From Cyanobacteria bacterium REEB446 (GTDB lineage Bacteria; Cyanobacteriota; Vampirovibrionia; LMEP-6097): a stretch of 64,000 nucleotides of DNA. The stretch covers positions 7,889 to 71,888 of the forward strand of contig JAGWWP010000001.1 of NCBI GenBank assembly GCA_018970325.1. The letters run 5' to 3'. The notes below the pieces were generated by a model that worked only from the letters and a program-made list of their open reading frames with translations, was not told the DNA's origin and made no database searches. The position numbers and the translations under genes were made by a program. Shown one piece after another: positions 7,867-51,494 of the stretch. The number at the start of each line of letters is the position of its first letter. Position 1 is the stretch's first letter.

Positions 7867-8829
7867 TTGCTATTAAAAATTATGTCTGAATTTTCTCACA
7901 CACCAGTAATGCCGAGTGAGGTGCTTGAATACCTTGATATAGATAAGGATAAAATATACTTCGACTGCACATTAGGCGCTGCTGGACACTCTAAGCTTAT
8001 TTTAGAGAAGCTTACCGGTCAAGGTCAGTTATATTCCTTCGACCAAGATATTAATGTTATAGAGAGCCACAGAGAGCTTCAGGCTTCCATTAATAGTCTT
8101 GCCTTAAAACAAGGTTTTACTAATGATAGGAATGATACTCTGATCGAAAATAAATGGAATCTAATTCATGCTAATTTCTCTCAGGTAAAGGATTTCTGTG
8201 AAGAGAATGAGATTAAGGTCACTGGGGGTATTTTAGTTGATTTAGGTATAAGCTCTATGCAGTTAGATGACCCAGAAAGGGGTTTTAGTTATTTGCATGA
8301 TACGCCACTTGATATGCGCATGGATAGAGACGTTTCACTTAGTGCTTATGATGTTATAAATACTTTTAAAGAAGCTGATATCGCAAATATATTTTATAAC
8401 TATGCAGAGGAGAGACTTTCAAGGCAAATAGCTCAGAGGATCATAGAACAGCGCCCAGTAGAAACTTCTAAGCAGCTCGCTGATTTAGTTAAAGAAGTTT
8501 ATTGGCGAAAATATCATAAACACTCTAAAGCTCACCCTGCGACTAAAGTCTTTCAGGCACTGAGAATCTCTGTTAATAAAGAATTAGAAGTTTTAGAAAC
8601 TTTATTAGAGTCTTTGCCAGAGGTGTTAGTAGAGGGAGCTACTGTGGTTATCATCACCTTTCACTCTCTAGAAGATAGAATAGTAAAGCAGTTTTTAAAG
8701 AAAGCTAATGATAAGTATAAATTTCAGCTGAGTTTTAAAAAACCCTTAGTAGCTACTGATGAGGAGCTTAAGGAAAATTCTCGTTCACGTTCAGCCAAAC
8801 TCCGTGCTGCTAGGTTTATACTAAAGTAA
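7867..8829 (+). CDS. rsmH: 16S rRNA (cytosine1402-N4)-methyltransferase RsmH/MraW
   Basis: HTPVMPSEVLEYL N-terminus, GxG SAM motif region, ITFHSLEDRIVK signature. Confidence 0.9.
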   Translation: MLLKIMSEFSHTPVMPSEVLEYLDIDKDKIYFDCTLGAAGHSKLILEKLTGQGQLYSFDQDINVIESHRELQASINSLALKQGFTNDRNDTLIENKWNLIHANFSQVKDFCEENEIKVTGGILVDLGISSMQLDDPERGFSYLHDTPLDMRMDRDVSLSAYDVINTFKEADIANIFYNYAEERLSRQIAQRIIEQRPVETSKQLADLVKEVYWRKYHKHSKAHPATKVFQALRISVNKELEVLETLLESLPEVLVEGATVVIITFHSLEDRIVKQFLKKANDKYKFQLSFKKPLVATDEELKENSRSRSAKLRAARFILK

Positions 8830-9185
8830 TGGCTCAAGTTAATTCATATCGACTTTTAGTTTTATTAGCTTTGTTATTTGGCTTATGTAGTGTTTTGCTG
8901 TTTGTAAATATTTTTTTTGAATCAGTAAATCGCTCACTAGAGCAGGAGATTAACATAGTAAGTAACGAGAAAATGAATTTAAGAATGTCTTTTTTACATC
9001 ATAGTTCGATAAATAATTTGAACAGTACAGCCTCTAAGCTTAATATGGTTCATATAGATGAAAAAAATAGTTTTCACCTTGATACTAAATCTGCTGCGAA
9101 TTTAAGAACAAATGATAAAAGCCTTTTTAAGAGCTTCACTGATAATTATTCTAATTCTAAGAAAGAATTTTTATACGGTTTTTAG
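8829..9185 (+). CDS. small membrane protein, possible FtsL-like cell division protein
   Basis: Single N-terminal TM helix followed by a coiled-coil-like segment, located immediately after rsmH as ftsL is in dcw clusters; weak. Confidence 0.3.
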   Translation: MAQVNSYRLLVLLALLFGLCSVLLFVNIFFESVNRSLEQEINIVSNEKMNLRMSFLHHSSINNLNSTASKLNMVHIDEKNSFHLDTKSAANLRTNDKSLFKSFTDNYSNSKKEFLYGF

Positions 9186-9221
9186 GTAAATGAAATAAAG
9201 AAAATAGCTCTGGACTGGCTC

Positions 9222-9641
9222 TTAGAATGGAATTTCCATATCTTCTTCACTAAGATCACTAGTTAAAGATGATGATTTAGAGCGAGATGCAGTGCTTGCG
9301 TAATCAGAATTATCAACAGCAGAAGAAGCACCAAGTAAATTAATTTTACTAACTTCTACACTGAAGACTTTCTGTGCATTGCCGTCTCTGTCGTTAAACT
9401 GATCTATTTGAGGTCTGCCGATTAACAAGACTTCTGTACCCGGGTTTAATCTTTCTAAATACTCTGCGTGAGCATCTCCCCAGAGATTAGCTTTTACGGG
9501 GTATCTTTTAACTTCTTTTGCTTTAGAATCGTATCTTTCGATTTCCATAGTGAAACTCACTACAGAAACATTATTAGCTGTGAATCTTTGTTCAGCTTTA
9601 TTCTTTAAAGTACCAGATAAAGTTATACTTGCAAAGGTCAT
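9222..9641 (-). CDS. ssb: single-stranded DNA-binding protein
   Basis: OB-fold SSB core and acidic C-terminal tail ending DMEIPF (cf. DDDIPF); follows rpsF as in the rpsF-ssb operon. Confidence 0.85.
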   Translation of the reverse strand: MTFASITLSGTLKNKAEQRFTANNVSVVSFTMEIERYDSKAKEVKRYPVKANLWGDAHAEYLERLNPGTEVLLIGRPQIDQFNDRDGNAQKVFSVEVSKINLLGASSAVDNSDYASTASRSKSSSLTSDLSEEDMEIPF

Positions 9642-12576: not shown

Positions 12577-13969
12577 AAAAGCTATATATAATTCCATCTG
12601 TAATTAGATATGCAAAAAGAGAGACGAGGAAACCAGCTAACTGACAGGGAAACTGTACTTTAAATATCATAAAACCTAGCCAAATACTTAAACCAGAAAA
12701 TATGGCTACCTGAGCTGCTGTGCTATTAATTTTTTTCGCGAAAATCGCAAATAAAAAAGGTACGACTAAAGTAACAAGTGTTATGGTAGCGGCTTCAGTC
12801 GCTAAGTGATAAATATTACCGTTAATAAAAGCGACTATTAAACTGATGATAGTTATAGCGATAGCAGCTTGTTTTATAGAAATAGTTCTATCTATATCTC
12901 TGACTTTTTTTCTATGACCCATAAATATTAAAGCTGGTCTGACGAAATTTTCTGCAAAAACCGTTGCTGGAGCAAGGATACAGACACTTGCTGTACTCAT
13001 AATCGCAGAGAGTATGGCACCGAAGAATAAAAATTGAACTAAAACATTACCATTATGCATAACGATTTTAGGTAGAACCATCTGGCCATCAGTGAGTTCA
13101 GAGATAAGCTCGGGTTGGCTTACTTTTATACCAAGGATAATAAATGCTGGAATTAAGCTTATTGCGATATATAGAAAAGCACTGAAGATACCTGAATATT
13201 TAGCTACAGCTGCTGATTTACAGGCTTTCACTCTTTGGTATAAATCCTGCTGGGGTAAAGAGCCGATACCGACAGTAATTAAGGCACTAATGAATGTCGC
13301 TATAGACATAAAATCCATATCTGGCACTACATTAAAAAACTCTGGAGGGGTCTGCTGGATTATATTTCCGAGTCCACCTGCCGCAGAGATAATAGGAACA
13401 GCCACGGCTAATAATCCTACTATTATGATGATAGTTTGGCTCATGTCTAAAATAGAGATAGCGAGTAAGCCGCCCCACCAGACGTAAAGTAAAAATATAA
13501 TGGCACCAATTATCATGCCTATTTCTAAAGGTAGATTAACTAAGGTTTTAAGAATTACGGCGAAAGCTATATACTGAGCGGCTAGCCAGCCGACGTAACC
13601 CATGATTATACAGAAACTTGCGTAGAAACCGACTTTCGAGCCATATTTACTTTTAAAAAAACTAGCGAAGGAGAGATAAGGCATTTTATAAAAATGCTTA
13701 GAAAAAACCGCACCGATTAAAAATATACAGATAGATGCACCGAAGGGATCTTTAATAAGAGCCATAAAGCCCCTGTTCATAAACTCTGATGCTGAACCGA
13801 TGATCATTTCAGAGCCGAACCAAGTCGCAAAAAAAGCGAAGGATGAAATCCAGAATGGTAGTTTAGAACCTGCAAAGACGTAGTCTAAGGTGTTTTTATT
13901 TTTCTGGCTTATATAAAAACTAAAGCCGATATTAAACAATATATACAATGCGACCAGAGTGATTAACAT
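12542..13969 (-). CDS. sodium:solute symporter (SSS) family transporter
   Basis: ~13 TM helices; SSS signature-like YVWWGGLLAISILDMSQT. Confidence 0.7.
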   Translation of the reverse strand: MLITLVALYILFNIGFSFYISQKNKNTLDYVFAGSKLPFWISSFAFFATWFGSEMIIGSASEFMNRGFMALIKDPFGASICIFLIGAVFSKHFYKMPYLSFASFFKSKYGSKVGFYASFCIIMGYVGWLAAQYIAFAVILKTLVNLPLEIGMIIGAIIFLLYVWWGGLLAISILDMSQTIIIIVGLLAVAVPIISAAGGLGNIIQQTPPEFFNVVPDMDFMSIATFISALITVGIGSLPQQDLYQRVKACKSAAVAKYSGIFSAFLYIAISLIPAFIILGIKVSQPELISELTDGQMVLPKIVMHNGNVLVQFLFFGAILSAIMSTASVCILAPATVFAENFVRPALIFMGHRKKVRDIDRTISIKQAAIAITIISLIVAFINGNIYHLATEAATITLVTLVVPFLFAIFAKKINSTAAQVAIFSGLSIWLGFMIFKVQFPCQLAGFLVSLFAYLITDGIIYSFFSKGSHRRHRL

Positions 13970-14135
13970 GCTGAAATGATTATGTCATTATGCCGTCAAA
14001 AAAAAAAGTGTTTAGCCTTAGGTTATAAAACTAGAGTGTGATGAAAGATACTGAGTTAATTTTCAAGCTGTGCGTTAAGCTCAGTTTTTAAACAATTTCA
14101 CCACACTCTAAGATTTGATCGGAAAGAAAAATATT

Positions 14136-14924
14136 TTACGCTTTTATAGACCCGCAGTATTCATCTATAAACTTTCTTTCTGAAACGCTGATATCTTCTA
14201 GGCTTGCTATCCAACTTAGATATTCAAGGTGATTCTCGTTAATTTTTTTACCTTTAAATTTTCCTTGAGCGAAGCAGAAATTATCATCTTTTAGATTAAA
14301 CCATTTCCCTGGAATACCGATCTGGCCTATGGTCTGGTGTTCTAATTCTCTTAGATCACCTTCGAAGAACTGTGGAAACTGCTGTATCTGTGCTGCTAGT
14401 ATCTCTTGAAGCTTTACGGCTGAGAATTCCATATATTCATCATCTTTATAATCCTTTCCTAGAAAGAGTTTAGCGGCATTCTTTAGTGTGTAAGGAAAGG
14501 CTTTTTTAAAGATTAGGTAAGGATCTATAAATGTAAAGTTTTCTTCAAGAAGCTGATAGCCACAGGTTCTATAAAGCTCATTCTGTAATATCTGAAAAGT
14601 AAAAGAGAAATTATAGGCGACAAAAACATTATGCGCTTCTAGCTCCTTGATTACTTCCTCCGCGATATTTTCAAAAGGCATAGCATCTTTAAGATCAGAG
14701 TTTTTAATACCATGCACTCTAGTAGCGTATTCCTGTATCTCTTTATTTGGATTAATAAGAAAGCTCTTTTCCTGACCATTACTGCCAAGTAAACTGAGCT
14801 TACAGATTCTATCTTTCTGCGGCTCTATACCTGTACTAGCTAGGCTGATAAATATAGGTTTATCTTTATCGTTCCAGAGAGTTTTTTCTGTGATAGGGTT
14901 TAGTGTATTTAATTTTTTAGACAT
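14136..14924 (-). CDS. DnaQ-like DEDD 3'-5' exonuclease homolog with degenerate catalytic motifs plus C-terminal extension
   Basis: Exo I position reads ISLASTGIEPQKDRI (canonical FDTETTGL..DRI: D and E replaced). Exo II reads HNVFVAYNFSFTFQIL (canonical HNAxFDxxFL: D replaced by T). Confidence 0.55.
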   Translation of the reverse strand: MSKKLNTLNPITEKTLWNDKDKPIFISLASTGIEPQKDRICKLSLLGSNGQEKSFLINPNKEIQEYATRVHGIKNSDLKDAMPFENIAEEVIKELEAHNVFVAYNFSFTFQILQNELYRTCGYQLLEENFTFIDPYLIFKKAFPYTLKNAAKLFLGKDYKDDEYMEFSAVKLQEILAAQIQQFPQFFEGDLRELEHQTIGQIGIPGKWFNLKDDNFCFAQGKFKGKKINENHLEYLSWIASLEDISVSERKFIDEYCGSIKA

Positions 14925-15030
14925 GTGATTCTCCTTTATTAGGAAGATCTTATAAAAAAATTTTCACTTAAATTTTTAATAGAGGAGAAATACGCTAGTG
15001 TTTTTAACTCTTCATCCAGCCTAGCTGCTT

Positions 15031-15081
15031 AAGAAAAACGATCCCCTAGAACTCAGCCATTTTGAATAGGTTCTAGGGGAT
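15031..15081 (-). terminator. intrinsic terminator downstream of eno
   Basis: Perfect 10-bp inverted repeat cccctagaac (15043-15052) / gttctagggg (15070-15079); on the minus strand it is followed by a U-run (plus-strand aagaaaaacg). Confidence 0.6.
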
Positions 15082-15107
15082 AATTTTAAATATTTAAAGA
15101 GATTGGC

Positions 15108-16463
<1,356 letters not shown>

Positions 16464-16564
16464 TTATGGGTTAAGGCGGGAGTTTCTATTAATTTTTCTG
16501 AAAATTTCACCCCAATATTAAAATTTAGTACTAAATTTTTAAGTCAGGGTAAAATTTTAGTATT

Positions 16565-17683
16565 ATGAAACGCTACTTAGAGGAGCAAATTAAAAACGAC
16601 CTTAAAGAAAAGATGGTTTTACTTGCGGGTCCACGTCAATGTGGCAAGACTACGCTCGGCATGAGTATTATTAAAAAAGATAAAAAACGTTATCTAAATT
16701 GGGATATATCTGAAGATAAGGAATTGATTCTCAAAAAAGCTTTCCCTAGTGAATCTGGTTACTTAGTTTTAGATGAGATTCATAAATTTGCGCGCTGGCG
16801 TAACTTATTAAAGGGTCTCTATGATGAGAGAAAAAATGATTTAAAGATTTTAGTTACAGGTTCAGCCAAATTAGATCACTATCGTCGTGGAGGTGATTCT
16901 TTGCAAGGGCGTTATCACTTATTGAGACTGCACCCTCTGAGTATAAAAGAAATAGGTAAAAAGAAACAGGAGCTTTTAATTCAGCTTCTAGATTTAGGTC
17001 CTTTCCCTGAGCCATTTCTGTCTAATGATAAGACTTCAGCCAGGCGCTGGTCTAGAGAATATAGGACTAGGTTAATTAATGAAGAGATTACTAGTCTAGA
17101 AAAAGTCTCAGAGATATCTTTATTAGACCTTTTATCACTGCGTCTTATAGATTCAGTCGGGAGTACCCTCTCTATTAACTCTCTTAGAGAAGATTTAGAA
17201 GTTTCTCACCAGACGCTGAAACGCTGGATAGAAATATTTTCTAATCTATATCACGTCTATCGCCTCTATTCTTTTGGTTCCCCTAAAATTAAGGCTGTAA
17301 AAAAAGAATCTAAATTATATTTTTTTGACTGGAATCTCATTGAAAATCAGGCTGCTCGCTTTGAAAACCTAGTCGCTAACCACCTTTTAAAATGGTGTCA
17401 CTTTATTGAAGATACAGAAGGTTACGATATGGAGCTGAGAATGTACCGTGATTTAGAGCAGCGAGAAGTGGATTTCGTTATTTTAAAAAATCGTAAGCCG
17501 ATTGAATTTATAGAAGTGAAACTCTCCAGTCAGGGATTAGATTCTAACTTAATTTACCTTAAGAAAAAGTTTCCAGAAGTCGAGGCTACACAGATTTCAT
17601 TAGAAGAGTGTGATGACCTCACGATTGGTGAATATGGGATTCGCAGGTGTTCTGCTTTGGATTATCTGTGGGAGAAGGTTTGA
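16565..17683 (+). CDS. AAA+ superfamily ATPase, DUF4143/COG1373 type
   Basis: Walker A GPRQCGKTT, Walker B VLDEIHK, C-terminal DUF4143-like region. Confidence 0.75.
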   Translation: MKRYLEEQIKNDLKEKMVLLAGPRQCGKTTLGMSIIKKDKKRYLNWDISEDKELILKKAFPSESGYLVLDEIHKFARWRNLLKGLYDERKNDLKILVTGSAKLDHYRRGGDSLQGRYHLLRLHPLSIKEIGKKKQELLIQLLDLGPFPEPFLSNDKTSARRWSREYRTRLINEEITSLEKVSEISLLDLLSLRLIDSVGSTLSINSLREDLEVSHQTLKRWIEIFSNLYHVYRLYSFGSPKIKAVKKESKLYFFDWNLIENQAARFENLVANHLLKWCHFIEDTEGYDMELRMYRDLEQREVDFVILKNRKPIEFIEVKLSSQGLDSNLIYLKKKFPEVEATQISLEECDDLTIGEYGIRRCSALDYLWEKV

Positions 17684-18960
17684 TGAAAGAATTTAATTTG
17701 TTGCTTGGTGCAGGGTTTTCTAAAGCTTTAGCGAATATTTCGACTGGACAGGAGTTTTCAGGAGAAATTTTTAATGAATTTGATAAGTCGGATGATGAAC
17801 AAGAGAGGAGTTTAGTGAATTTTAATTATGGCTCTAATTTAATTTTAAAAAAGTCTGATGAGTTATTGCCTCCTAATGGAACCATTAGTGGGAGTTTCTT
17901 AATTAACCAAAAGTCAATTAGACCTTTTCAATATCTACCGAACAAAGATAGGATGATTTCTACTATATCTATGTTTAATATTACGGATAATGAAAAAGAA
18001 GAGCATAAAAATAAAATCCAGAATACCTTCAGAAATAATTTCAATTATGAGACGGCAGCTAAGCATTTAACTAATATTATTGAATCTGCTGAGATTTTCG
18101 GTATTAACTCTGAGAAAGTTGAAAGCCTCTCCAATATTCTAAAAAAAATAAAAGAAGAAGTTTTTAAAATAACTACTAAAGACCCTATTTCTTGGCGCTT
18201 AAAAAATGGTGAAAAACAGGCTCTAAATGATTTTACTTTCTTCCTGAATTACTTACTAGATCAGGGATATACTATAAATATTTTTGATTTAAATCATGAT
18301 CAGCTAATCAGGGAGATTATTAAACAAGGAAATCTAAGTGAGGGGTATCAGGACTTTTTTAATCGTAACGAAGTAATTGATGTTTATAAATCTGATTTAA
18401 AGGCTTACAAATTTGATAGCGGTCTTTCTAAAAGAAGAATTAATCACTATAAGCTGCACGGCGATTTTCAAATAATTAGGGATTACTATCAGGGCTGGGC
18501 TTTATTAGCAAAATTTTCAGCTACTAATAAATACACATGGTCGAGAGGAAATAATACCGATTGGTTGTCATTACTCACTGACAGCTTACTCTTTCAGGGT
18601 GAAGCAAAAGCTAATAGTATTTTTAGTAGTCTCTACCATAGTTTTGCTTTTACTGATTTCTTTAAAGCTGTTCAAAGCAATGAACCTTTGATGATAATTG
18701 GTTATGGTGGCGGAGATAGTCATATTAACTCTGTTTTAGATAATCGCTTAAAGAATCACCGTGGTTATAATTGTGTTAAACTCTCACGAAATGGAGATAA
18801 AGTATTATTCTCTTGTAATGAATTTACAGAAACTATTCTGAAACAAGTTTTTATAAATCTTCAAGGTGATTACAATCCTAATTTATTTTATTCAAGAGAA
18901 GGATTTGAACAGGGTTTTCTTCCAGTCTTTCGTACATGCCTTAAGCAATACTATGTTTAA
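17683..18960 (+). CDS. SIR2_2-like (SIR2 superfamily) domain protein
   Basis: LLLGAGFSKA (Rossmann GAGxS), DLNHDQLIRE (cf. TTNYDxLxE), HYKLHGDF (catalytic His block), IIGYGGGDSHIN (GYSxxD). Start ATG at 17683 overlaps the upstream stop (TGATG) with RBS ggagaagg. Confidence 0.6.
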   Translation: MKEFNLLLGAGFSKALANISTGQEFSGEIFNEFDKSDDEQERSLVNFNYGSNLILKKSDELLPPNGTISGSFLINQKSIRPFQYLPNKDRMISTISMFNITDNEKEEHKNKIQNTFRNNFNYETAAKHLTNIIESAEIFGINSEKVESLSNILKKIKEEVFKITTKDPISWRLKNGEKQALNDFTFFLNYLLDQGYTINIFDLNHDQLIREIIKQGNLSEGYQDFFNRNEVIDVYKSDLKAYKFDSGLSKRRINHYKLHGDFQIIRDYYQGWALLAKFSATNKYTWSRGNNTDWLSLLTDSLLFQGEAKANSIFSSLYHSFAFTDFFKAVQSNEPLMIIGYGGGDSHINSVLDNRLKNHRGYNCVKLSRNGDKVLFSCNEFTETILKQVFINLQGDYNPNLFYSREGFEQGFLPVFRTCLKQYYV

Positions 18961-19216
18961 TTTTCAAATATAGTGAATCCGCACAAAGATCAATCCCATT
19001 AAGCCATTGAAGTGAACGCTTATCAGAAGAAATTTTCACTTGTTTAAAATTTTCTATATTTTCTAAGGCTTGAAAAACACCTTTGCCAACTTTTTCAGAA
19101 AGATCTATCTCGCCAGTAACACCATCTTCAAAGCTTAATAGGAGCTTATATGCTTCAAGAGCTATGCAGGACTGGATTTTATGAAATGGTTTGCTCATAA
19201 CTAATGTATTGTACAT
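18941..19216 (-). CDS. DUF2442-family small protein
   Basis: C-terminal motif WLNGIDLCADSLY typical of DUF2442. Confidence 0.45.
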   Translation of the reverse strand: MYNTLVMSKPFHKIQSCIALEAYKLLLSFEDGVTGEIDLSEKVGKGVFQALENIENFKQVKISSDKRSLQWLNGIDLCADSLYLKIKHSIA

Positions 19217-19260
19217 AACGCTGCTTAAATTTATATTCTAATTCATATGAACCGCACTTC

Positions 19261-19320
19261 ATAAAATTTCATAAAAAATATTTTTATGAATTAGATTTCA
19301 TAGATTTTATGAAAGCCTTG
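19261..19320. promoter_or_regulatory. cluster of inverted repeats (TTCATAAAA / TTTTATGAA) upstream of DUF2442 gene
   Basis: cataaaatttcataaaaaatatttttatgaattagatttcatagattttatgaaag contains a near-perfect 23-bp palindrome plus flanking half-sites. Confidence 0.3.
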
Positions 19321-19341
19321 TAAATTAATTAGAGGGCTTAA

Positions 19342-21933
19342 TTAGTCTGGGCTGGCTTTTGGGGAAAGGTGCTGGAAGGGGAAATTAATTACGCTGTTTC
19401 CTCCAGCTGAAGTATTTTCATCTGCAAATTTGAAATATTCTTGAGTGAAATCTTCATTCTGCCAGTTTTCTATGGATTTTATGAAATTATTAAAAGCCTG
19501 GAAGTTTGTAAAAAATGGTTGTTGATAGTATGTATGTGTTAATTCATTATAAGATTCTGTTAAATAGTCTCCTATAAAAGAGTATGTTTTCCCATCATCA
19601 ATAACAATCTGATGTTCCAAAAATAATTTAAATAGATGACGACTTCTCTCAAAATTTTCTTTTAAAATCTTGAATACCTTTTCTCCAAGATAGTCACGCA
19701 CAGTGCAAACAAGAGCTTTAAAATATTCACCAGTAATAATGTCTCCTTTGTGTAAATAACTCGCAAGAAGATCCTCTATAAATGGATTTGGCAGAAACTG
19801 AGGCTTAGTAGAGTTCAGAGTAAGAAGGTTCTGTGTAACTATTCCAGTTGATTGTAAAATACTGCTAGACTCACGCATTACTCTAGCAATGAATAAATAA
19901 GGTATAAAATCTTTATTAGTAGTAATAGTCATAGTTTTAAGCTGCTCGATTAAATTACTTAAAATATCTTTCTGCTTTTCTGTTTTCATGTTCTTAAAAC
20001 TTGGGGAAGTGATTTGCCGAGATAATAATCTAGCTAAAAAACACTGCTCTAAAGCATCTCTAGAAATAGGTTCGGCTGCTACTCTCAGAAATATACTAAA
20101 AATATTTTCATAGGTTTTATCTATATTAACTATATACTCACTATTAAGTAACCTTTTTAGAGAGAGATATTTCTCGTCCGAGCAGTACTCTTTTAATTTA
20201 ATATCATCTACAGAACTAGCTTCAATAAACTCTTTAAACTCATCTGGTTTAATTTTTGAATTTTCATAATTATAACTAAGAGTAAAATAAAGCTCATAAG
20301 AATAACGGAATCTCATTGAAATAATACCGAGATGCTCTTCTGGAGAATCTGGACGATATCCATCTTGTTTTACTTTTTCACTAATCGGTTCACCAAATAA
20401 ATAACTAAGTAACTCTATAGCTGGCTTAGCTAGAGACTCTGAATCCAGTAATGATAAATAAAAACGAGGTCCTAATTCTAGTTTAATATTACTAGATTGT
20501 AGAATTAAATACTCATAACGCTTCTCCTTCAGCGTTTGGTAAACATCATGATAATTCAAATCTAAAAGCTTAAGTACCAGTAAATCATAGGGATCAACAT
20601 TATCACCTAGAAAATCATAAGCATTATTAAAGCTCTGTGAGAGCTTCTCCAAATCTCTAAAAGTTTTTATTTCTTTAGCTAAAATTTTATAAAGCTTTAC
20701 TTCTCTAGAAAGAATATCTTTGTTGTCATTTGCCTGATTAACTTTGCTAATAATTCTTTCTTTAATCTTTTCAGAAATATGAAGCCTATTCACCAGCATT
20801 GCCACTAAATGACGCTCTGGAATTAAAGGAAGATCAATCTCATTAGGGAAGATTTTATCTAAATATTTAAAATCGAGAGCTGATTTTTCTAAAACCCTGT
20901 GTAGATGCTCTTTATCATAAGCTATGATAAACTTTATTTTTTTAAAACTCGCTAGTTGTCTAACTAACTGTAAAGTTTTGATACACTCCGCTGCTTCTAG
21001 GCGATCTATATCATCAATAATAATTAGGATTTGTTGATCCTGAATGATGTCCGGTAAATGTTTATTGATTTCTTTAAATTCATGCTCACGAGAACCTTCT
21101 AGATTAAATAAAAATGTAAAAGCAGACTGGTATTGAGTATTTAAAAGATTTTTATATCTTTCTAAATTACTATCTAAAGCTAGACTGCGAAGCGGAAATT
21201 CCTTTTTTAACTTTTCCTTTAAAACAGATATAAATTCGGAAGCGATCTGGTTAGGATCTGTACAGTACCAAGGATTGAAGTCTATAAGTAAAAGTTTATC
21301 CTTGTATTTTTTTTCAGCATACTCTTTAATAAATTCTATAGTTTTGGTTTTACCACTGCCCCAAGAAGCTTGTAGACCAAAAATTTCTGCTTCATCCTTA
21401 TATTTGTCATCTGGATTAGGTTTTAGAATCATATCTAAAAATTTTTGAGCAAATTCTTTACGTCCATAATGTTCTTCTTGCTCACTGCTAGAGCTTTTTA
21501 GGCTCTGCTCCTTCTTGCACCAAGCCGTAAATGTTTCTATTACTAAAGCCGTAATCGGTACTATCACTATCACTAAAACTGAGATAGAAGGGAATTTAGA
21601 ATATATAGAATCACTGCCTCCTAAAACAGGAAAATCAAATAAAGATCTAAAAGAATCTATTTTTAAAAACCCAAGAACTGTTACTGCTAATAAAACACCT
21701 AAAGTATCTGGCTTAATGAGTTTCTTAGAACAAGTGAGAAAAATTATGTATAAAATAGATATGCTTATTAGAATCCATGAGAAAAAAATATTATCAAACA
21801 AAGCAAGTACCTGAGTTTGAGGGGATTTTAAAGATAAATTTATTAACTCAATTGATAAAGATAAAGCCAAAAAAGTTAAGGAAAAGCTTTTCAGAAATTC
21901 TACTAAATTAGCTTTGCATTTAACGATAAACAT
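19342..21933 (-). CDS. KAP-family P-loop NTPase with N-terminal transmembrane helices
   Basis: P-loop FGLQASWGSGKT; Walker B-like ILIIIDDIDRLE; ~4 predicted TM helices in first 150 aa. Confidence 0.65.
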   Translation of the reverse strand: MFIVKCKANLVEFLKSFSLTFLALSLSIELINLSLKSPQTQVLALFDNIFFSWILISISILYIIFLTCSKKLIKPDTLGVLLAVTVLGFLKIDSFRSLFDFPVLGGSDSIYSKFPSISVLVIVIVPITALVIETFTAWCKKEQSLKSSSSEQEEHYGRKEFAQKFLDMILKPNPDDKYKDEAEIFGLQASWGSGKTKTIEFIKEYAEKKYKDKLLLIDFNPWYCTDPNQIASEFISVLKEKLKKEFPLRSLALDSNLERYKNLLNTQYQSAFTFLFNLEGSREHEFKEINKHLPDIIQDQQILIIIDDIDRLEAAECIKTLQLVRQLASFKKIKFIIAYDKEHLHRVLEKSALDFKYLDKIFPNEIDLPLIPERHLVAMLVNRLHISEKIKERIISKVNQANDNKDILSREVKLYKILAKEIKTFRDLEKLSQSFNNAYDFLGDNVDPYDLLVLKLLDLNYHDVYQTLKEKRYEYLILQSSNIKLELGPRFYLSLLDSESLAKPAIELLSYLFGEPISEKVKQDGYRPDSPEEHLGIISMRFRYSYELYFTLSYNYENSKIKPDEFKEFIEASSVDDIKLKEYCSDEKYLSLKRLLNSEYIVNIDKTYENIFSIFLRVAAEPISRDALEQCFLARLLSRQITSPSFKNMKTEKQKDILSNLIEQLKTMTITTNKDFIPYLFIARVMRESSSILQSTGIVTQNLLTLNSTKPQFLPNPFIEDLLASYLHKGDIITGEYFKALVCTVRDYLGEKVFKILKENFERSRHLFKLFLEHQIVIDDGKTYSFIGDYLTESYNELTHTYYQQPFFTNFQAFNNFIKSIENWQNEDFTQEYFKFADENTSAGGNSVINFPFQHLSPKASPD

Positions 21934-22219
21934 TGTTAGTCCCAGAATGACCGCCTATATTTAAAACAAGTATATGTAAAGAACCGTTGCTAAATTCCCA
22001 AATAATTCTAATATCACCGCTAATAAAAGAGCTGTAAACTTTACCATCATACATGGCAGTATTCACACCGTGAGTATTTAAGTTAGGAGAAAAAGGATCT
22101 ACAGAGAGACTTTCTAAAGCTTTACTAATTTGCTTTTCTAAAATCTTACTTTTTTTACAAAGCTTGGCATACTTCTTTGCTGCAAATTTTGTAAATTCAA
22201 TTTTATAATTATCGCTCAT
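21920..22219 (-). CDS. type II toxin, RelE/ParE superfamily
   Basis: C-terminal DIRIIWEF..LHILVLNIGGHSG..VY resembles RelE/ParE fold signature; overlaps KAP NTPase start by 14 bp. Confidence 0.5.
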   Translation of the reverse strand: MSDNYKIEFTKFAAKKYAKLCKKSKILEKQISKALESLSVDPFSPNLNTHGVNTAMYDGKVYSSFISGDIRIIWEFSNGSLHILVLNIGGHSGTNNVYR

Positions 22220-22237
22220 GTTTTTATAAGGATCTTA

Positions 22238-22642
22238 TCAATCATCCTCTTCAGCAAAATCAATCAGAGACTTGTGAAATGAAGCACTCTTAGGATTAAA
22301 AACCTTAACTTTACCTTGCTTTTTATCTTCTAGACTTTTTAACAATTCATCTTGCTCTTCGTTAGACAAATTAATAGAAGGCATTTTACTATTCAAAGAT
22401 ATATTAATGTTTTCTTGAAGAAAATTATTAATTAAAAATCTAACAACATCAGTGACTGAATCAAAACCTGCACTTTCTGCTTTAAGTTCAAGATGCCTCT
22501 TCTTTTCAGAACTAATTGGGATCTGTATTCTAGTGTCTTTATCGTTAACCTTTTTGGTAGCAGGTCTTGCTACTTGTATAAGTGCATGCAGTGAACCCAC
22601 CTTAGTAGACTTTTTTGATATATTTCTATCATTTTTTAGCAT
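22238..22642 (-). CDS. putative antitoxin (RHH-like N-terminal region) partner of RelE/ParE toxin
   Basis: Located 18 bp upstream of toxin gene; RIQIPISSEKKRHLELKAESAGFDSVTDVVRFLINNF is RHH-like; acidic C-terminus. Confidence 0.35.
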   Translation of the reverse strand: MLKNDRNISKKSTKVGSLHALIQVARPATKKVNDKDTRIQIPISSEKKRHLELKAESAGFDSVTDVVRFLINNFLQENINISLNSKMPSINLSNEEQDELLKSLEDKKQGKVKVFNPKSASFHKSLIDFAEEDD

Positions 22643-34202: not shown

Positions 34203-35429
34203 ATGTCTGCTATCTTAAAGCGAGATTTAGAAAAAACGGTAAAAGAATTACTTCAGGATTTTCCGTGTGTAGTACTTTTAGGAGCTAGACAGGTAGGTAA
34301 ATCTACCCTCTTAAAGAAGGTATTGCCAAATGCTGAATTTGTTGATTTAGAGAGAAAAGATACCCTTGAGATGTTGAGCGCTGAGCCAGAATTGTTTTTA
34401 CGAGAAGCTTCTTTGCCTTTGATTATTGATGAAGCTCAATTCTGCCCAGAACTCTTTCCAGCTCTAAGGGTTAAGATAGATGAAGATAGAAAAAAACATG
34501 GACGTTTTTTAATTAGTGGCTCTAGTTCACCGCAGCTTCTTAAAAATATTAGCGAATCACTAGCTGGCAGGGTGGCTATTTTAGAAGTGCCAACTTTAAC
34601 TTGGTCTGAGGCTTTTGAGCTTCGCTCATCTAAATTTTATGATTACTTAGATAAACCTGAAAAATTTATAAATTTAAAAGCACTTTATAAGCTAGAAAAG
34701 CTTCAGGAGTTAGCTTTGTTTGGCCTGTATCCAGAGGCTTTTTTGAAAAGAAAAAAATTAGCATCTTACGATACTTGGGTTAGATCATATTTTGATACTT
34801 ACATAGAAAGAGATATCCGCACTTTATTTCCTAATTTAAAGTTAGACAGTTACAGAAGGTTCATTAAAATGCTGGCTTTCTCTTCTGGTGAGCTTTTAAA
34901 TGCTTCTAGCTTCGCTCGTTCTTTAGATATTTCTCAACCTTCTGTGAAAAATTATATGGAAATAGCAGAAGGGACTTTTCTTTGGCGGCGTTTAGACTGT
35001 TATCGTGAAAATGCAAAAAAACGTCTGGTGCAAATGCCTAAAGGGCATTTAAGAGATAATGTGATTTTAAATTATCTTCTGAATATCAATACTGTAGATG
35101 ATTTGAAGTCTCACCCACAGTTTGGAAGGATTTGGGAAGCTTTTATTATAGAGCAGATTATTAAAAATCTCGATCAGAGACTATATAAACATAAAGAATT
35201 TTTTTATAGAACCCATAATCAGGCTGAGATTGATTTAATAGTTCAGGGACGCTTCGGCTTAATACCTATAGAAATTAAATCTGGATTAAGCGTAAAGAGG
35301 GAGCAGTTAATAGCGATGAAGAACTTTATAGAAGAACATAACTGCCCTTATGGAATACTGATTAATAGTGCAGAAAAGGTTTTAAAGTTATCAGAAAAAA
35401 TATATCAAGTGCCAGTGAGTTTTATTTAA
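34203..35429 (+). CDS. AAA+ superfamily ATPase, DUF4143/COG1373 type
   Basis: Walker A GARQVGKSTL, Walker B IIDEAQ, paralog of 16565-17683. Confidence 0.75.
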   Translation: MSAILKRDLEKTVKELLQDFPCVVLLGARQVGKSTLLKKVLPNAEFVDLERKDTLEMLSAEPELFLREASLPLIIDEAQFCPELFPALRVKIDEDRKKHGRFLISGSSSPQLLKNISESLAGRVAILEVPTLTWSEAFELRSSKFYDYLDKPEKFINLKALYKLEKLQELALFGLYPEAFLKRKKLASYDTWVRSYFDTYIERDIRTLFPNLKLDSYRRFIKMLAFSSGELLNASSFARSLDISQPSVKNYMEIAEGTFLWRRLDCYRENAKKRLVQMPKGHLRDNVILNYLLNINTVDDLKSHPQFGRIWEAFIIEQIIKNLDQRLYKHKEFFYRTHNQAEIDLIVQGRFGLIPIEIKSGLSVKREQLIAMKNFIEEHNCPYGILINSAEKVLKLSEKIYQVPVSFI

Positions 35430-35747
35430 GGTAATGATAGAGAGCTTATTTACTTCTAGAACAAGAAACTCCCTTAGGAACATAGTTTCACCTCGCTATA
35501 TGGATCATGTATTCTCTCAGCTAAAAATTTATTATCAAGAGAAAGGCTCTCCGTTGAAGAGTTTTTTAGCGGACGATCAATAATTTTCTTGAAGTTGCTT
35601 TCCCCTTCTCCAAGGAGTATTTAAGTCTCACCCCCCAAGTCAAGCGTTTATTAAGTAGTCTAAGCAAAGAAATGACGAGAATACAGATTCAAGACGGCCT
35701 TGGATTAAAAGATAAAAAGAGTTTTGGGGGATTTATAAGATTCTTTA

Positions 35748-36826
35748 TTATTCATCTAAAGCCTCAATGCAAGAAAGCATTTGCCGAGGATTAGTGATAT
35801 AAGTATCTTGGCGTTTTTGCTCATCATTAGCAGCGTAAACTAATATCTTTCCATATTTTAAATCGGGGAAGGTTTTTTCAAAGTAATCTAAATTTTTTAA
35901 AAAATCCTTCGTAAAGGTTTCAGCAGATTTGATCTCTATAGGTAAATAACAGTTCCCGATATTATAAATGATATCAATCTCTTTCTGTGAGCCATCTCTA
36001 TAAAAACAAAGATTGTTTTTTTTGCCATTATTATAGCGGTGCTTAATCAATTCATTTATAACTAAATTTTCAAAAAGATTCCCTCTCAAAGGATGACTGT
36101 GAAGGTGTTTCTCTTTCTCTATATCTAATAAATAAGCTGCAAGGCCTGTATCGTAAAAATAGATCTTCGGTGATTTAATAAGCTGTTTTTTAATATTAGT
36201 AAAAAATGGTGGTAGCAGATAAATAATATAGCTAGCCTCTAATATACTGATCCACTCTCTAATAGTGTTGTGTGATACGCCTAGATCGTCTCCGAGGTTT
36301 TGATAGTTAAGAATCTGCCCGACTCGTCCAGCACAGAGTTTCAAAAATTTCTGGAATAAATGTAAATTTTTTAATTCGCTAATCTCTCTTACATCCCTCT
36401 CTACATAGGTTTTTATATAATCTCTCATGAAAGCCTCTACTGGAATGTCCTCCTCGTATAATTTAGGATAACTACCCTTAAAGATAAGCTCATCATAAGA
36501 AGGAGGTTCTTTATAATAACTACTAATTTCTTTTAGGCTGTATGGAAGTAAACTAATAATCGCGGTTCTGCCTGCTAAAGACTGGTTTATGGAGTCTAAA
36601 AGATTAAATTGCTGTGACCCTGTCAGGATAAACATTTCTTTGACTTTTTTTTCGTCGACTATTGCTTGAATATATGAAAGTAAAATTGGCACTCTTTGAA
36701 TTTCATCTAAGATTGCACCATCGGGGTATTGGTTTAAAAAGCTTTCTGGGTCATCCTGTGCGAAGCTTCTCGATTTAGGATGTTCTAAATTAACATAAGG
36801 CTTATTTTTAAAGATCTTTGTTAATC
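35748..36826 (-). pseudogene. N-terminally truncated DUF4143-type AAA+ ATPase (Walker A region missing)
   Basis: Open frame extends upstream of first Met to a TGA at ~36829 and encodes ...PESFLNQYPDGAILDEIQRVP... (Walker B region) but no P-loop. A short out-of-frame MLINKDL* sits at 36832. Confidence 0.45.
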
Positions 36827-36846
36827 AGCATATTTTACTTTTACCC

Positions 36847-36877
36847 AATAAATTGTAAGTAGCACTTACAATTTATT
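36847..36877. promoter_or_regulatory. perfect 14-bp-arm palindrome aataaattgtaagt-agc-acttacaatttatt
   Basis: Read directly; lies between res stop and the truncated ATPase gene. No U-run follows, so operator or non-canonical terminator. Confidence 0.35.
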
Positions 36878-36925
36878 AGATTTCTTTGTTTTATTATATA
36901 GCAGACTTTTGGAAGATTTATAAAT

Positions 36926-39418
36926 TTACCCTCCCATAATCTCCTGTAACTGACACATCTGCGAGTCTTCATGAATGATTACCCCAGTAAATCCGAAGGC
37001 TTCTATAGTCTCATCTAGAGAGGATCTCTCTTGATAGTGCTCACTTAAAAATTCTAATAATTCATGCTTATATTCAGTATCTTCATTACCTCTTAGGTGT
37101 TTACCTTTAGTTTCTATGAGGATATAGTCGAATTTATTTTTCTGCTCAAGCTGTTTTTTAATTAGAAAATCTGGATAAATACGGCGTTTCTCCCAGCCTT
37201 GTAAATAATAGTCCTGACGCTCATTTATTCTATGCCACCAAGCGGTTTTACTGAAATCATATTCGAGCTGAGTTATACAGTTTCTCTCTAATTCATTAAA
37301 CCAAATGGCGTAAAGCGGACTGAAGAGATTTTTTTTCGCGAACTTGCCATCTTTTAACGTAAATTCTTCTAATTCTTTAGGGCTGTCTAGCTCTAGCTCT
37401 CTTGGTATCTCATAATATTCTTCCTGAAGAGAGAATTCTAATTTATTTTCCTTAGACCATTTTTTGAAGAGCTTTTCAGCTTCATTGTAAATTTGTTTTT
37501 GTAAATCTAATTTAATTTCTTCTATCAAACCTAAAGCATCTCTATGTTTACTAATTAGATCTAGATGAGGTTTTAGGATATCGTAAGCTATCCATGCGTT
37601 GGGGATTAGGTCTTTAAATTTCTGTAAAATATAAATCGCCTCTAGTGGAGCCTTTTCTCTATTTAAATTTTTTTCTATCGCATCTATATCGAAAAGTTTT
37701 AAAGTCTCTGAATCACGGTCACACACTATCTTTTTAATAGTATCGAACTGATCTGAATTTTCATAAGAGCTAAGCTCTTGTCTGAGCTTGATTTTAGACC
37801 AGTCTATTTCTGGGAGTATATGTTCTATCCAGTTAAATTCAGTAGATTCACCCGATTCTAGTTTTAAAGTTATTTTTGGAAGATAAATTTTGTCTTCTTT
37901 AAAATTTTCTTTTCTTTTGATTTTTACTTTTCTCGGATTTAGATTTTTTTGGGCTTCTGGATTATTTTCATCTTGAGTTCTTAGGGAGTTTTTTATATCG
38001 CCGTAACCATGCTCTTCTAAAGACTTCTTAATTCCATCTGCAACCTTTTTAACATTACTGTTAAACATATAAACGAAGCTTTCATTTAATTCAGGATAAT
38101 CTGGAATCTGTTTAGTATAAGGCTGCCGTAGGATTCGACCTAGCATTTGAGTTAAGGCTGTTTCAGCAAGGGTAGTATCTAAATTACATAATATATAAGC
38201 GAAAGGACAGTCCCAACCTTCTGCTATGGCATATCTCGTAATAATGTATTTAATTCTACACTTATGACTACGAAGCTCTATTTTCTCCAAATCATCTTTC
38301 TCAGAGGATTTAATGGCGATTTCTTCTAAAGGTATTCCAGTCTTTAGTAAGTAGTCTTTTACATCTTCTGCATGAATGTACTTAGAGTCTCTTGTGTCTT
38401 TCCCCGTTCTTTGAACTCGAATTAGCATGATGGGGCGAATATATACATCATCTTCTGCCTGATTCATTTCTGCGAATTTATCTAACTGCCTCAGCTTTTC
38501 TAAAGATCTATCTAAGCAGGTATTCCAGTTATTTCCAGCGGTCTGGGTTACAGTTATAGGCATCTTAATCATCTGTTCTTTCCAGAGATCGAAGCCCTTA
38601 GCTTCATAGAGAATGCTAGATCTCTCTGAGGGAGTGGCACTGAGTTCTAGAATAAAAGAAGGATTAAAATTAATAATATTTTCTTTTGCTTTGTCAGTTT
38701 TCTGTCTATGAGACTCGTCTAGAATAAATAGAGGCTGTTCTATGCGTATAAGATTAGCGAGAGAGTGCTTAATAGTGGTGTTAGGGAACTGTTTATAAGT
38801 GATAACGCTTTCACTGAAGCTATCTAAGTTCGGGAAGTTTTTTTTCAGGAAAAAATTATCACCAGCTTCAGTATATTCAGGAAAATAATTCGAGTAGAGA
38901 GCTGAATCATCGTAGATCTTACGCTTATCCTTAGTCTCCTTACCGATATTAAAAGATTGTATAGTTAGAACTAAGACGCAGAGATGAGTTTCTAAGTCAT
39001 TTTTCGTAATGCGACTCTCTTTATTAAAAATCTTCAGTTTACCGAAGGCACTATTCTTAAGGCTTACATGTAAAGGATGCTGAATATCATTTAACTGCTT
39101 TAAAGTCTGTTTGTAGATAGTATCAGAAGTAGTCACCCAGATTACTAAGCCACTGTGTTTTTTATAAAAATATTCTTGGATTTTTTCTATGCAGTGTGCT
39201 GCTAGATAGGTTTTACCGCCACCTGTAGGTAATTTAAAGCAGACTTTAGGTATGGGTTTGCCGTTAATATTCCTAACATTATGATAAGGATATTTTCTTT
39301 GGACTCCTTGAAAAGAACGTTCTATATCATCATGAAATTTGTATAGATTTTCTATAAATATAGCTAAATGCTCTAAAGCTTCTCTTTGATAGGATTTTAG
39401 CTCAAAAATACTTGCCAT
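36926..39418 (-). CDS. res: Type III restriction enzyme, Res subunit (helicase-nuclease)
   Basis: Walker A LPTGGGKTYLAA, DEAH-box ILDESHRQ, C-terminal PD-ExK nuclease motif RIYPDFLIKK...YILIETKGK; immediately downstream of mod. Confidence 0.85.
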   Translation of the reverse strand: MASIFELKSYQREALEHLAIFIENLYKFHDDIERSFQGVQRKYPYHNVRNINGKPIPKVCFKLPTGGGKTYLAAHCIEKIQEYFYKKHSGLVIWVTTSDTIYKQTLKQLNDIQHPLHVSLKNSAFGKLKIFNKESRITKNDLETHLCVLVLTIQSFNIGKETKDKRKIYDDSALYSNYFPEYTEAGDNFFLKKNFPNLDSFSESVITYKQFPNTTIKHSLANLIRIEQPLFILDESHRQKTDKAKENIINFNPSFILELSATPSERSSILYEAKGFDLWKEQMIKMPITVTQTAGNNWNTCLDRSLEKLRQLDKFAEMNQAEDDVYIRPIMLIRVQRTGKDTRDSKYIHAEDVKDYLLKTGIPLEEIAIKSSEKDDLEKIELRSHKCRIKYIITRYAIAEGWDCPFAYILCNLDTTLAETALTQMLGRILRQPYTKQIPDYPELNESFVYMFNSNVKKVADGIKKSLEEHGYGDIKNSLRTQDENNPEAQKNLNPRKVKIKRKENFKEDKIYLPKITLKLESGESTEFNWIEHILPEIDWSKIKLRQELSSYENSDQFDTIKKIVCDRDSETLKLFDIDAIEKNLNREKAPLEAIYILQKFKDLIPNAWIAYDILKPHLDLISKHRDALGLIEEIKLDLQKQIYNEAEKLFKKWSKENKLEFSLQEEYYEIPRELELDSPKELEEFTLKDGKFAKKNLFSPLYAIWFNELERNCITQLEYDFSKTAWWHRINERQDYYLQGWEKRRIYPDFLIKKQLEQKNKFDYILIETKGKHLRGNEDTEYKHELLEFLSEHYQERSSLDETIEAFGFTGVIIHEDSQMCQLQEIMGG

Positions 39419-39422
39419 AAAT

Positions 39423-41195
39423 TTAATCCTCTGAATCTTCTAGGTTATTTAAGACGTTAGCGGAATTGATTTGTAAGTACTGATAAGGGATTTGGCAGAT
39501 AATAGGTTTTTTCGTATACTTCTCTTTCTCAATAAGGCTTTTAATGCTTTTATTATCCACATAAATAGTGACAGCATAAATTAGTGCCTGATAGCCATTA
39601 TCACAGTCTTTTAGAATCTGCTCTAGCTTAGAGCGGCTTAAAGCATAATCGTGGTGCTTCAGTTTCTCTTTATCAGCACTGTATATTAGATAGAGTTTAT
39701 AGTTTTCGGTTTTACCGATGTAATGTGAAGCGTTTTCTGTTACGTTACTTAAAGCTTGATTAGTAGTGTGATAAAAAAGGTAGCTAGCAAGTGCCTCATA
39801 GCTAGGTAAGTCTTTTTCTAAAAATAGAGTATTTAAATGTAAAGCTTCTCCTAACTTTACTACGGTGAAGCTGCCGCCTAGACCTTCTTTAAGCTTAGGG
39901 TCTTTAGCTGTTGCTACACCTTCTATGCAGCGACGGATTCTTGCAGTGGTGATTTCGAAAATGTTTTTGAAGCCTTGCTTGGAGGCTTCTTCTGATTCTT
40001 CAGGCTGTTGTATTAGAATAAACTTCCTGCTTCCACCATCTTCTTTATTCATTTCTAGGACAGCGTGTCCAGTGGTTCCTGAGCCTGCGAAGAAGTCTAG
40101 GATTAGAAAATCTTTATCAAAGTCAGCTAAACTATTTAACAAGTGTTTGAGTAAATAAACAGGCTTAGAATAATTAAAGACAGGCTGTTCAAATATTTCT
40201 TTTAAATTTTCAGTTGCATTCTCGTAATTAAAAGATTTTTCACTGAGTATGGATCTTATTTTTGAGATTTTATTTTCCTCAAAGTAGATTTTTTCAAATA
40301 CGTCAAATCTTTTTTCACTCTTATTCTTAACAACTCTAACAATTAATTTGTTGATTTCTTTATTTACGGTATCTTTAGACCAACGCCATCTACCATCCTC
40401 ACCGTTAGATAGTTTAGGTAATATCTCTATAGCATTATTAGATTTTCTTTCTGTTGAAATTTCTGAGTTTTGTGCATCATAAAAAATAGGGAAATATTGA
40501 TTAGGAGCGTCACTCCTCTTTGAGTCAGCTCCACGTTTTCTGAGACCCCTTTCTTCATAAGCTTTTCCTTGATTATCAGATTTGTTATAATTTTCAATAC
40601 CTTTAATAAAACCAAATGGTAAAAGATTTGTTTTTAACTTACTGAAGCAAAGAATATATTCATGCTCAGATGCCGTGTGTTTCTTGGCTTGGTTACCACG
40701 GGGATTAGATCTTACCGTGAAAGTCTCTATATAATTATCTTCATCGAAAATTTCATCAAGCATGATTTTTATATGAAAAAATTCAACATCATTAATACTA
40801 ATAAAAATGACTCCGCTTTCTGAGAGCAGTTCCCTCGCTAATACCAAGCGTGGATACATCATACAAAGCCACTTATCATGCCTTTGTAGATCTTCTTTAC
40901 CGACCACGTTTCCAAGCCAGCTCTTTATCTGAGGGCTATTTAGATTATCGTTATAAACCCAATTCTCATTTCCAGTATTATATGGCGGGTCTATATAGAT
41001 GACATCAACTTTAGAAGCGAATTTGGGGATTAGAGATTTTAAAACTTCTATATTATCACCTTCGATAATCAAATTATCATCTAGACTGGGTTCTGGACTT
41101 AAGCTATCCTGCTGATCTATCTTCAGCTCCCTAACTGCTAGTGAGTGATGATAATTTATTACAGCGTCTTTTCCTTCCCAGATTAGTTCAGGCAT
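39423..41195 (-). CDS. mod: Type III R-M DNA methyltransferase, Mod subunit (beta-class N6A/N4C MTase)
   Basis: Motif [14 protein letters not shown] precedes motif [12 protein letters not shown] (beta-class order); mod-res gene order. Confidence 0.85.
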
Positions 41196-51479: not shown

Positions 51480-51494
51480 AAATTAAAACTTTTA

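Follow-up and report, generated by a model that had tools for sequence, protein, structure and literature searches.

A gene for a predicted ATPase and a gene for a SIR2-like protein lie head to tail in the genome of Cyanobacteria bacterium REEB446, within a stretch of 64,000 nucleotides (positions 7,889 to 71,888 of contig JAGWWP010000001.1) that is referred to here as the window and whose own numbering is used below. Both genes are on the forward strand. The first encodes a protein of 372 amino acids, called ATPase-A (16565-17683), and the second a protein of 425 amino acids (17683-18960). A single base is shared at the junction, where the TGA stop codon of the ATPase gene (17681-17683) overlaps the ATG start codon of the SIR2-like gene (17683-17685). 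The Shine-Dalgarno sequence GGGAGAAGG (17670-17678) ends 4 nucleotides upstream of this ATG and forms, together with the TGATG overlap, a compact element at 17670-17685. The second reading frame also contains an in-frame GTG at 17647, but the ATG at 17683 is taken as the start because even homologues with 33-36% identity begin at this position. A preliminary description of this DNA had proposed the pair as a translationally coupled defence module that depletes nicotinamide adenine dinucleotide (NAD+); the two open reading frames (ORFs), their overlap and the ribosome-binding site on which it built are confirmed. The comparison with related genomes nevertheless does not support an obligate ATPase-SIR2 system, and the locus is read here, with moderate confidence, as two autonomous genes of defence type that lie close together where a variable island begins, and not as a new two-gene system.

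The ATPase-nuclease

The first gene had been assigned to the DUF4143 ATPases, and this assignment holds: both Pfam matches, to AAA_14 (9.2e-26) and to DUF4143 (8.9e-20), exceed their cut-offs, and the protein combines AAA_14, a winged helix-turn-helix and DUF4143, a family that is classed as PD-(D/E)XK (PMC3424549; PMC12988326). The Walker A motif GPRQCGKTT (aa 22-30; 16628-16654), in which G22, G27 and K28 are invariant across 31 homologues, and the Walker B motif LVLDEIH (16763-16783), with invariant D70 and E71, are retained. The same applies to the PD-(D/E)xK motif REVDFVI...IEVK (17462-17521), where E301, D303, E317 and K319 are invariant. The AlphaFold2 model of the protein is confident, with a predicted local distance difference test (pLDDT) score of 93.

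The proposed link to the ATPase of Shango is not borne out. The Sng models remained unmatched even at E<=1, and Pfam revealed neither a TerB nor an SngC-like gene among the neighbours; instead, seven PDC-S01 models of PADLOC match ATPase-A, the best one at 4.7e-47, and PDLC04787 aligns over aa 3-370. PDC-S01 is defined as a stand-alone gene encoding an ATPase with a PD-(D/E)xK domain and is reported as the fourth most common prokaryotic defence candidate, although it is not validated; the PADLOC authors report that the family is enriched inside defence loci (PMC12988326). In the one test that was found, the candidates that gave E. coli protection against T4, T5 or T7 did not include the PDC-S01 gene (bioRxiv 10.1101/2024.09.26.614923). 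ATPase-A shares the domain architecture of this family but differs from its single-gene definition in that, in the clade considered here, its gene has one base in common with a SIR2 gene.

The SIR2-like protein

All SIR2 motifs named in the preliminary description are present in the downstream protein. They comprise the NAD-binding Rossmann motif LLLGAGFS (aa 6-13; 17698-17721), DLNHDQL with the putative catalytic Asn204 (aa 202-208; 18286-18306), YKLHGD with the putative catalytic His259 (aa 256-261; 18448-18465) and IGYGGGDSHIN (aa 339-349; 18697-18729), the last of which is common to the SIR2 subunits of SIR2-HerA (GFGFGDYHIN). Across 51 relatives, down to approximately 19% identity, G9, G11, S13, N204, D206, H259 and G260 are invariant or nearly so, with N204, D206 and G260 strictly and H259 nearly invariant. 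Asn204 and His259 correspond to the catalytic dyad N226/H287 of SaSir2, a protein that on its own is autoinhibited until HerA binds (PMC11514289).

The profile check on SIR2_2 (PF13289) gave a marginal match that passes the gathering cut-off (27.2 versus 24.5 bits, E 4.6e-6, aa 200-360); 12 of 16 homologues likewise carry SIR2_2 in their precomputed Pfam annotation. In a profile search against the PDB, the segment YKLHG...GYGxGDxHIN aligned with the E. coli SIR2 protein 8j4u (YKLHGS), and the predicted model, which is of moderate confidence, has the three-dimensional fold of SIR2. Residues 49-118 (17827-18036), which form a hypervariable cassette with at least three unalignable allele types, have low pLDDT in this model. 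Motifs, profile and model support placing the protein in the SIR2_2 family, with an intact catalytic Asn/His pair and the predicted fold of anti-phage SIR2 NADases; it may accordingly be described as a SIR2-HerA-type SIR2 without an adjoining HerA. NADase activity and a role in defence would be in keeping with this assignment.

In databases, the exact protein is annotated as 'SIR2 family protein' of the Cyanobacteria bacterium REEB446 metagenome-assembled genome (MAG), and the MAGs in which its close relatives occur bear the names Melainabacteria, Vampirovibrionia and Caenarcanales. The family is small: it comprises 17 clusters among 5.8 billion proteins, and only 10 cluster representatives among 1.84 billion were found at E<1e-30. 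It is surrounded by a halo of 430 SIR2 proteins of approximately 350-420 amino acids that match the PADLOC models 'SIR2' and 'Aga_SIR2'.

Presence and loss of the two genes in related genomes

The slot that contains the pair was compared among 12 related lineages of Vampirovibrionia (Caenarcaniphilales), with MAG and metagenome contigs as comparators. In these relatives, the SIR2 gene is always divergent from the enolase gene and a gene for an AcrB-type pump closes the slot, whose contents vary. The pair is present in four lineages, namely in the window and in loci L097, L017 together with L098 (from one MAG) and L018, all with the TGATG junction. Six lineages have SIR2 alone (L001, L002/3, L004/5/6, L009, L095 and L096) and two have ATPase-A alone (L015 and L016). 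The overlap and the Shine-Dalgarno sequence are common to the window, L097, L017 and L018; the junction is identical in L097, and it is also kept in all SIR2-only loci. An apparent frameshift in the ATPase gene of L018 was rejected as such, the break being a scaffold gap of 10 N.

Both kinds of single-gene locus retain traces of the pair. L015 has a clean deletion in which exactly 17682-18957 of the window is absent, and L016 keeps TGATGAAAG, which is followed by unrelated DNA. In SIR2-only loci, three parts have survived: the intergenic region upstream, the region around the ATPase ATG and a stretch of approximately 95 nucleotides, the 3' part of which is homologous to the last ~40-83 nucleotides of the ATPase gene. 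In alignments, the 3' end of this gene (17600-17682 in the window, forward strand) thus reappears as a non-coding remnant 5' of SIR2: positions 5933-6040 of L002 and 17600-17707 of the window are identical at 94 of 108 sites, and the remnant spans 39-55 nucleotides in L001 and L004. The C-terminus of the ATPase is conserved through the final residue in homologues with 55-60% identity. Because the 3' end of the stretch encodes this family-conserved C-terminus, it is explained as a deletion remnant and not as a native spacer, and for the same reason the opposite course of events, insertion of the ATPase gene into a SIR2-only ancestor, was rejected. In view of these remnants, the ancestor of the clade probably carried the pair, of which later lineages have lost one gene or the other.

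This comparison does not support the claim of an obligate two-gene system. Pairing is restricted to one narrow clade and is broken there in eight of 12 lineages, in both directions; joint gain and loss across genomes, the generic mark of an obligate system, is not found, as only four of the 12 lineages carry both genes. The surviving gene is left intact by the loss of its partner, and there is no visible change in its selection regime.

A DUF4143 ATPase gene just 3' of SIR2 in L002 was considered as a replacement partner and was rejected as evidence for linkage. It encodes a different protein, ATPase-B, which is only 22% identical to ATPase-A and matches a separate PDC-S01 model (3e-134). ATPase-B adjoins SIR2 in L002 and L096 and occurs without SIR2 in L016. 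The same hotspot of L002 (9204-11907) and L003 also encodes an HNH protein, an MC6 protein and a DUF2326 ABC ATPase, the latter with a PADLOC match to PDC-M68B (1.6e-194) and a weak match to LmuB.

Selection and recombination

The two genes differ strongly in their ratios of nonsynonymous to synonymous substitutions (dN/dS), which are pairwise Nei-Gojobori approximations with values affected by recombination: 0.02-0.04 for ATPase-A, approximately 0.01 for enolase and 0.3-0.7 for SIR2. The SIR2 values are 0.41-0.52 between pair loci and 0.29-0.64 between SIR2-only loci, and the two ATPase-only loci give a dN of 0.003, a dS of 0.17 and a dN/dS of 0.02. Within SIR2, the N-terminal 48 residues give a dN/dS of 0.1-0.3 when other loci are compared to the window; in the cassette of aa 49-118, dN reaches ~0.8-1.0 between allele types and is saturated. 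Ten full-length, intact SIR2 orthologues were found. Nine of these are complete (L098 ends at a contig edge) and contain no stop codon or frameshift at a dS of 0.11-0.43.

Recombination has exchanged SIR2 alleles next to a nearly constant ATPase gene. L097 is 99.4% identical to the window over 13399-17830, has no match to 17830-18029 and is 88% identical thereafter, which places the breakpoint inside the SIR2 gene at a non-homologous cassette (17827-18036 of the window, 4432-4613 of L097). As a result, a 99.9% identical ATPase stands beside a SIR2 allele with 69% identity. There is no co-evolution of ATPase-A and SIR2: their dN/dS values are unlike and their alleles are shuffled. Base composition also sets the two genes apart, with 30.9% GC in SIR2, much as in the KAP gene, against 36.6% in the ATPase gene and 39.6% in enolase.

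Homologues beyond the clade

The ATPase family is large, with at least 8000 homologues at E<1e-10. A total of 80 genome loci with ATPase genes were retrieved, and SIR2-like neighbours were sought with a hidden Markov model (HMM) of the SIR2 family. A SIR2-like ORF was nearby only in L017 and L018, both within the clade; the ATPase-only loci L015 and L016 of the clade were also among the 80. At the remaining 76 loci, which belong mostly to other phyla (Bdellovibrionota, Desulfobacterota, Gammaproteobacteria, Spirochaetota and others) and encode ATPases of 45-69% identity, the SIR2-family HMM found no SIR2-like neighbour. Two homologues, of 91% and 76% identity, are encoded by stand-alone genes, the second of which (L012) lies between the genes for ValRS and a RarA-type ATPase. 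The preliminary description had named, among the findings that would refute it, a pairing not conserved in other genomes and an autonomous, common DUF4143 homologue with varied neighbours; both are largely borne out, the latter by the number of homologues, their varied neighbours and the three copies in the window.

Outside the clade, the gene downstream of the ATPase is usually convergent or distant. The few that are tightly spaced are unrelated and encode an HD/dGTPase-like protein, a ZnuB-like permease, an aminotransferase, a GNAT protein and a spermidine synthase (families partly read by eye). The idea that a variable effector generally follows the ATPase was rejected, because these closely spaced genes are of unrelated housekeeping types. 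In L013 (5001-7404), a 71% identical homologue of ATPase-A is followed after 1 nucleotide by a 427 amino acid HD/HD_assoc_2 (dGTPase-like) protein, with a further DUF4143 ATPase 0.8 kb beyond it. ATPase-A types in L019-L094 share 45-60% identity across lineages, which is far more conservation than a presumed defence gene would usually show. They occur with striking frequency in predatory lineages (Bdellovibrionota, Bacteriovoracaceae and Oligoflexia) as well as in Vampirovibrionia.

Distant relatives of the SIR2-like protein have other neighbours. Those with 36% identity (L007/8) lie on a mobile element that carries a SMODS gene; in L007 (6001-8268), the SIR2-like gene is followed after 6 nucleotides by a gene for a 337 amino acid protein without Pfam or PADLOC match. 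This element also bears a serine recombinase and an AAA_15/21 ATPase. A relative with 33% identity (L010, 5253-10443) adjoins a type III restriction-modification (RM) system and overlaps two genes, one upstream for a Cas4-like PD-(D/E)xK protein and one downstream for a DUF4238 protein. Opposite to these lie a further SIR2-like paralogue (8243-9322, reverse strand) and an uncharacterised gene for a protein of 374 amino acids. L010 may represent a different, multi-gene SIR2 arrangement. Wider context searches returned one locus from a metagenome scan and none from a viral scan, and plasmids and phages searched by tblastn yielded no match.

Comparison with known SIR2 defence systems

SIR2-HerA (Nezha) is the closest known system. 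Both have a SIR2 protein of approximately 400 amino acids with an N-terminal GAGxS, a long helical insert, a catalytic Asn-His pair approximately 55-60 residues apart and a G(Y/F)GxGDxHIN motif. However, sequence similarity amounts to only 14-18%, with an E of 0.022 in the PDB profile search, and the recombining hypervariable cassette is a feature of the SIR2 family described here. The upstream ATPase, where present, is of the AAA_14/DUF4143 and not of the FtsK/HerA type. No HerA gene adjoins SIR2 in the window (Pfam, PADLOC), nor is one annotated in the related loci examined, and none appeared elsewhere in the window among the best 25 of 97 families listed for the 32 large ORFs scanned.

The remaining systems are more distant. 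Avs5 (AVAST type 5) is a single SIR2-STAND polypeptide with a C-terminal sensor, whereas the locus has two separable genes and its ATPase carries a nuclease; the structural similarity of the SIR2-like protein to Avs5 is also far below that to SIR2-HerA. Thoeris requires a SLOG domain in ThsA and an adjoining ThsB/TIR gene, both of which are missing here: SIR2_2 was the only Pfam domain detected in the SIR2-like protein, and there was no PADLOC match to ThsA or ThsB. SPARSA requires an APAZ fusion and an adjoining pAgo, neither of which accompanies this SIR2, and DSR1 and DSR2 exceed 1000 amino acids as compared to 425. No pairing of DUF4143, AAA_14 or COG1373 with SIR2 is described in the literature searched, in agreement with the earlier statement that no such system was known.

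Interpretation

In the reading as two autonomous genes, both would have been packed head to tail at the start of a variable island of Caenarcaniphilales (Vampirovibrionia / 'Melainabacteria') that extends from enolase to the AcrB-type pump. ATPase-A would be a self-contained STAND/arcATPase-like P-loop ATPase with a winged helix and a PD-(D/E)xK nuclease as its own putative effector, apparently held under housekeeping-like purifying selection. SIR2 would be a fast-evolving, autoinhibited NADase that depletes NAD+ upon infection, and its hypervariable, recombining insert may provide specificity or regulation. In the clade ancestor, both genes were probably co-transcribed from a promoter upstream of the ATPase gene, and SIR2 expression could continue after deletion of the ATPase because promoter, ~95-nucleotide remnant and SIR2 ribosome-binding site would all be kept; the two proteins would then act independently of each other. 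A scan for promoters and terminators gave sites that were no more numerous than in shuffled sequence.

Several considerations weigh against autonomy and would equally fit a facultative two-gene module, in which the ATPase-nuclease, on sensing nucleic acid of phages, would bind the SIR2 NADase and lift its repression as HerA does, translational coupling would set the stoichiometry, and single-gene loci would be degraded or re-wired. The pair, probably ancestral as judged from the remnants, persists with an identical overlap of 1 nucleotide in at least three diverged lineages (ATPase nucleotide identity 89-91%), and the Shine-Dalgarno sequence is conserved with it in all four pair lineages. The closest SIR2 proteins by fold, those of SIR2-HerA, show no activity unless an ATPase partner is present (PMC11514289), and by analogy a SIR2 of 425 amino acids without a recognisable sensor domain might need one too. 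The ATPase core resembles STAND NTPases, so that a parallel to SIR2-STAND fusions such as Avs5 could be drawn. In SIR2-only genomes, a DUF4143 ATPase encoded elsewhere could act in trans; a second, unrelated one, ATPase-B, lies beside SIR2 in L002 and L096. Gene losses were scored at the locus, on MAG and metagenome contigs. A facultative module is nonetheless doubtful, considering that the partner was lost in eight of 12 lineages with an intact survivor and unchanged dN/dS, that a near-identical ATPase stands beside a cassette-swapped SIR2 allele, and that SIR2 is found at none of the 76 ATPase loci outside the clade. The other neighbours of distant SIR2 relatives, the occurrence of ATPase-B without SIR2 and its low identity to ATPase-A, and the nuclease effector that ATPase-A already bears point in the same direction. 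It seems rather unlikely that a PDC-S01-type ATPase-nuclease serves, in a facultative and modular way, as a HerA substitute that activates a SIR2-HerA-type NADase and that, separately, the swappable cassette sets target specificity; if the HerA-substitute reading were true, the widespread and unvalidated candidate PDC-S01 would gain its first mechanistic partner. An obligate pair would even assign a function to PDC-S01, but the comparative evidence argues against it.

Defence could also be the task of SIR2 only, with ATPase-A as a conserved, non-immune cellular ATPase-nuclease that borders the island and carries its PDC-S01 label by guilt-by-association. Its dN/dS close to that of enolase, its 45-60% identity across lineages and the housekeeping neighbours of relatives, such as ValRS and RarA in L012, would fit this, as would the one reported PDC-S01 test without protection against T4, T5 and T7. 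Its GC content of 36.6% is near the window mean of 34.7%, with 39.6% for enolase, 30.9% for SIR2 and ~31% for the KAP gene of the island. This alternative is unlikely, since ATPase-A is dispensable (deleted in six lineages), multi-copy and patchy, the PADLOC authors report its family inside defence loci, and the window's remaining two copies adjoin a type III RM system. That the SIR2-like gene is instead a decaying relic without current function is very improbable. Its high dN/dS and its Pfam score only marginally over the cut-off might suggest decay, yet the ratio is clearly below 1, especially in the N-terminal 48 residues, the ten orthologues are intact, and even relatives with only 19-36% identity retain the catalytic and NAD-binding residues without change.

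Under the preferred reading of two autonomous genes, the novelty is modest. It consists of a small group of SIR2-HerA-type SIR2 proteins that lack HerA and possess a recombining cassette, found in Vampirovibrionia, which are non-photosynthetic relatives of cyanobacteria, and of the occasional operonic coupling of this SIR2 with PDC-S01. Nature has provided a series of deletions among the related genomes, with the pair and each gene alone, that tells experimenters which constructs to compare. The locus also calls for caution, in that a stop/start overlap of 1 nucleotide in a defence island is by itself no evidence for a functional system.

Surroundings in the window

The accessory-gene setting given in the preliminary description is correct, and the pair sits in a defence-rich variable island. 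Of the neighbours that it named, DUF2442 (1.7e-9) and the KAP NTPase (KAP_NTPase, 8.6e-32) were recovered with clear matches, whereas the match to a RelE/YafQ-like toxin is weak (0.027). These genes make up the remainder of the island on the reverse strand (18941-22642), where the RelE/YafQ-like gene is paired with a ParG-like gene. DUF2442, which weakly resembles the DhiA antitoxin (6.4e-7), has a convergent overlap of 20 nucleotides with the 3' end of the SIR2 gene; relatives often have a DUF4160 and DUF2442 pair, of which the window contains DUF2442 only. The KAP NTPase has a strong PifA-like match (9.2e-33).

Two further DUF4143/AAA_14 ATPase genes are located at 34203-35429 (forward strand) and 35751-36824 (reverse strand), the second of which is without the first ~30 AAA_14 positions and may be a pseudogene. 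Both adjoin a type III RM system (Res 36929-39418, Mod 39426-41195), and the entire stretch (34203-41195) lies between ffh/ftsZ and a Ppl-like gene. Because the window contains three such ATPases and many defence systems, a DUF4143 ATPase can easily come to lie beside some other defence gene by chance here.

A type I Zorya-like operon occupies 45543-53765 on the reverse strand, with ZorA (51498-53765, 1e-17), ZorB (50754-51479, 1e-27) and ZorD (45543-49193, 3.8e-124); the position of ZorC is taken by a 522 amino acid ORF (49189-50754) without PADLOC match. On the forward strand, a Ppl-like protein of 887 amino acids (2.7e-39) and an overlapping protein of 387 amino acids are encoded at 41684-45495, the latter matching the PADLOC models for pAgo and for Argonaute-associated PNTD (1.7e-15).

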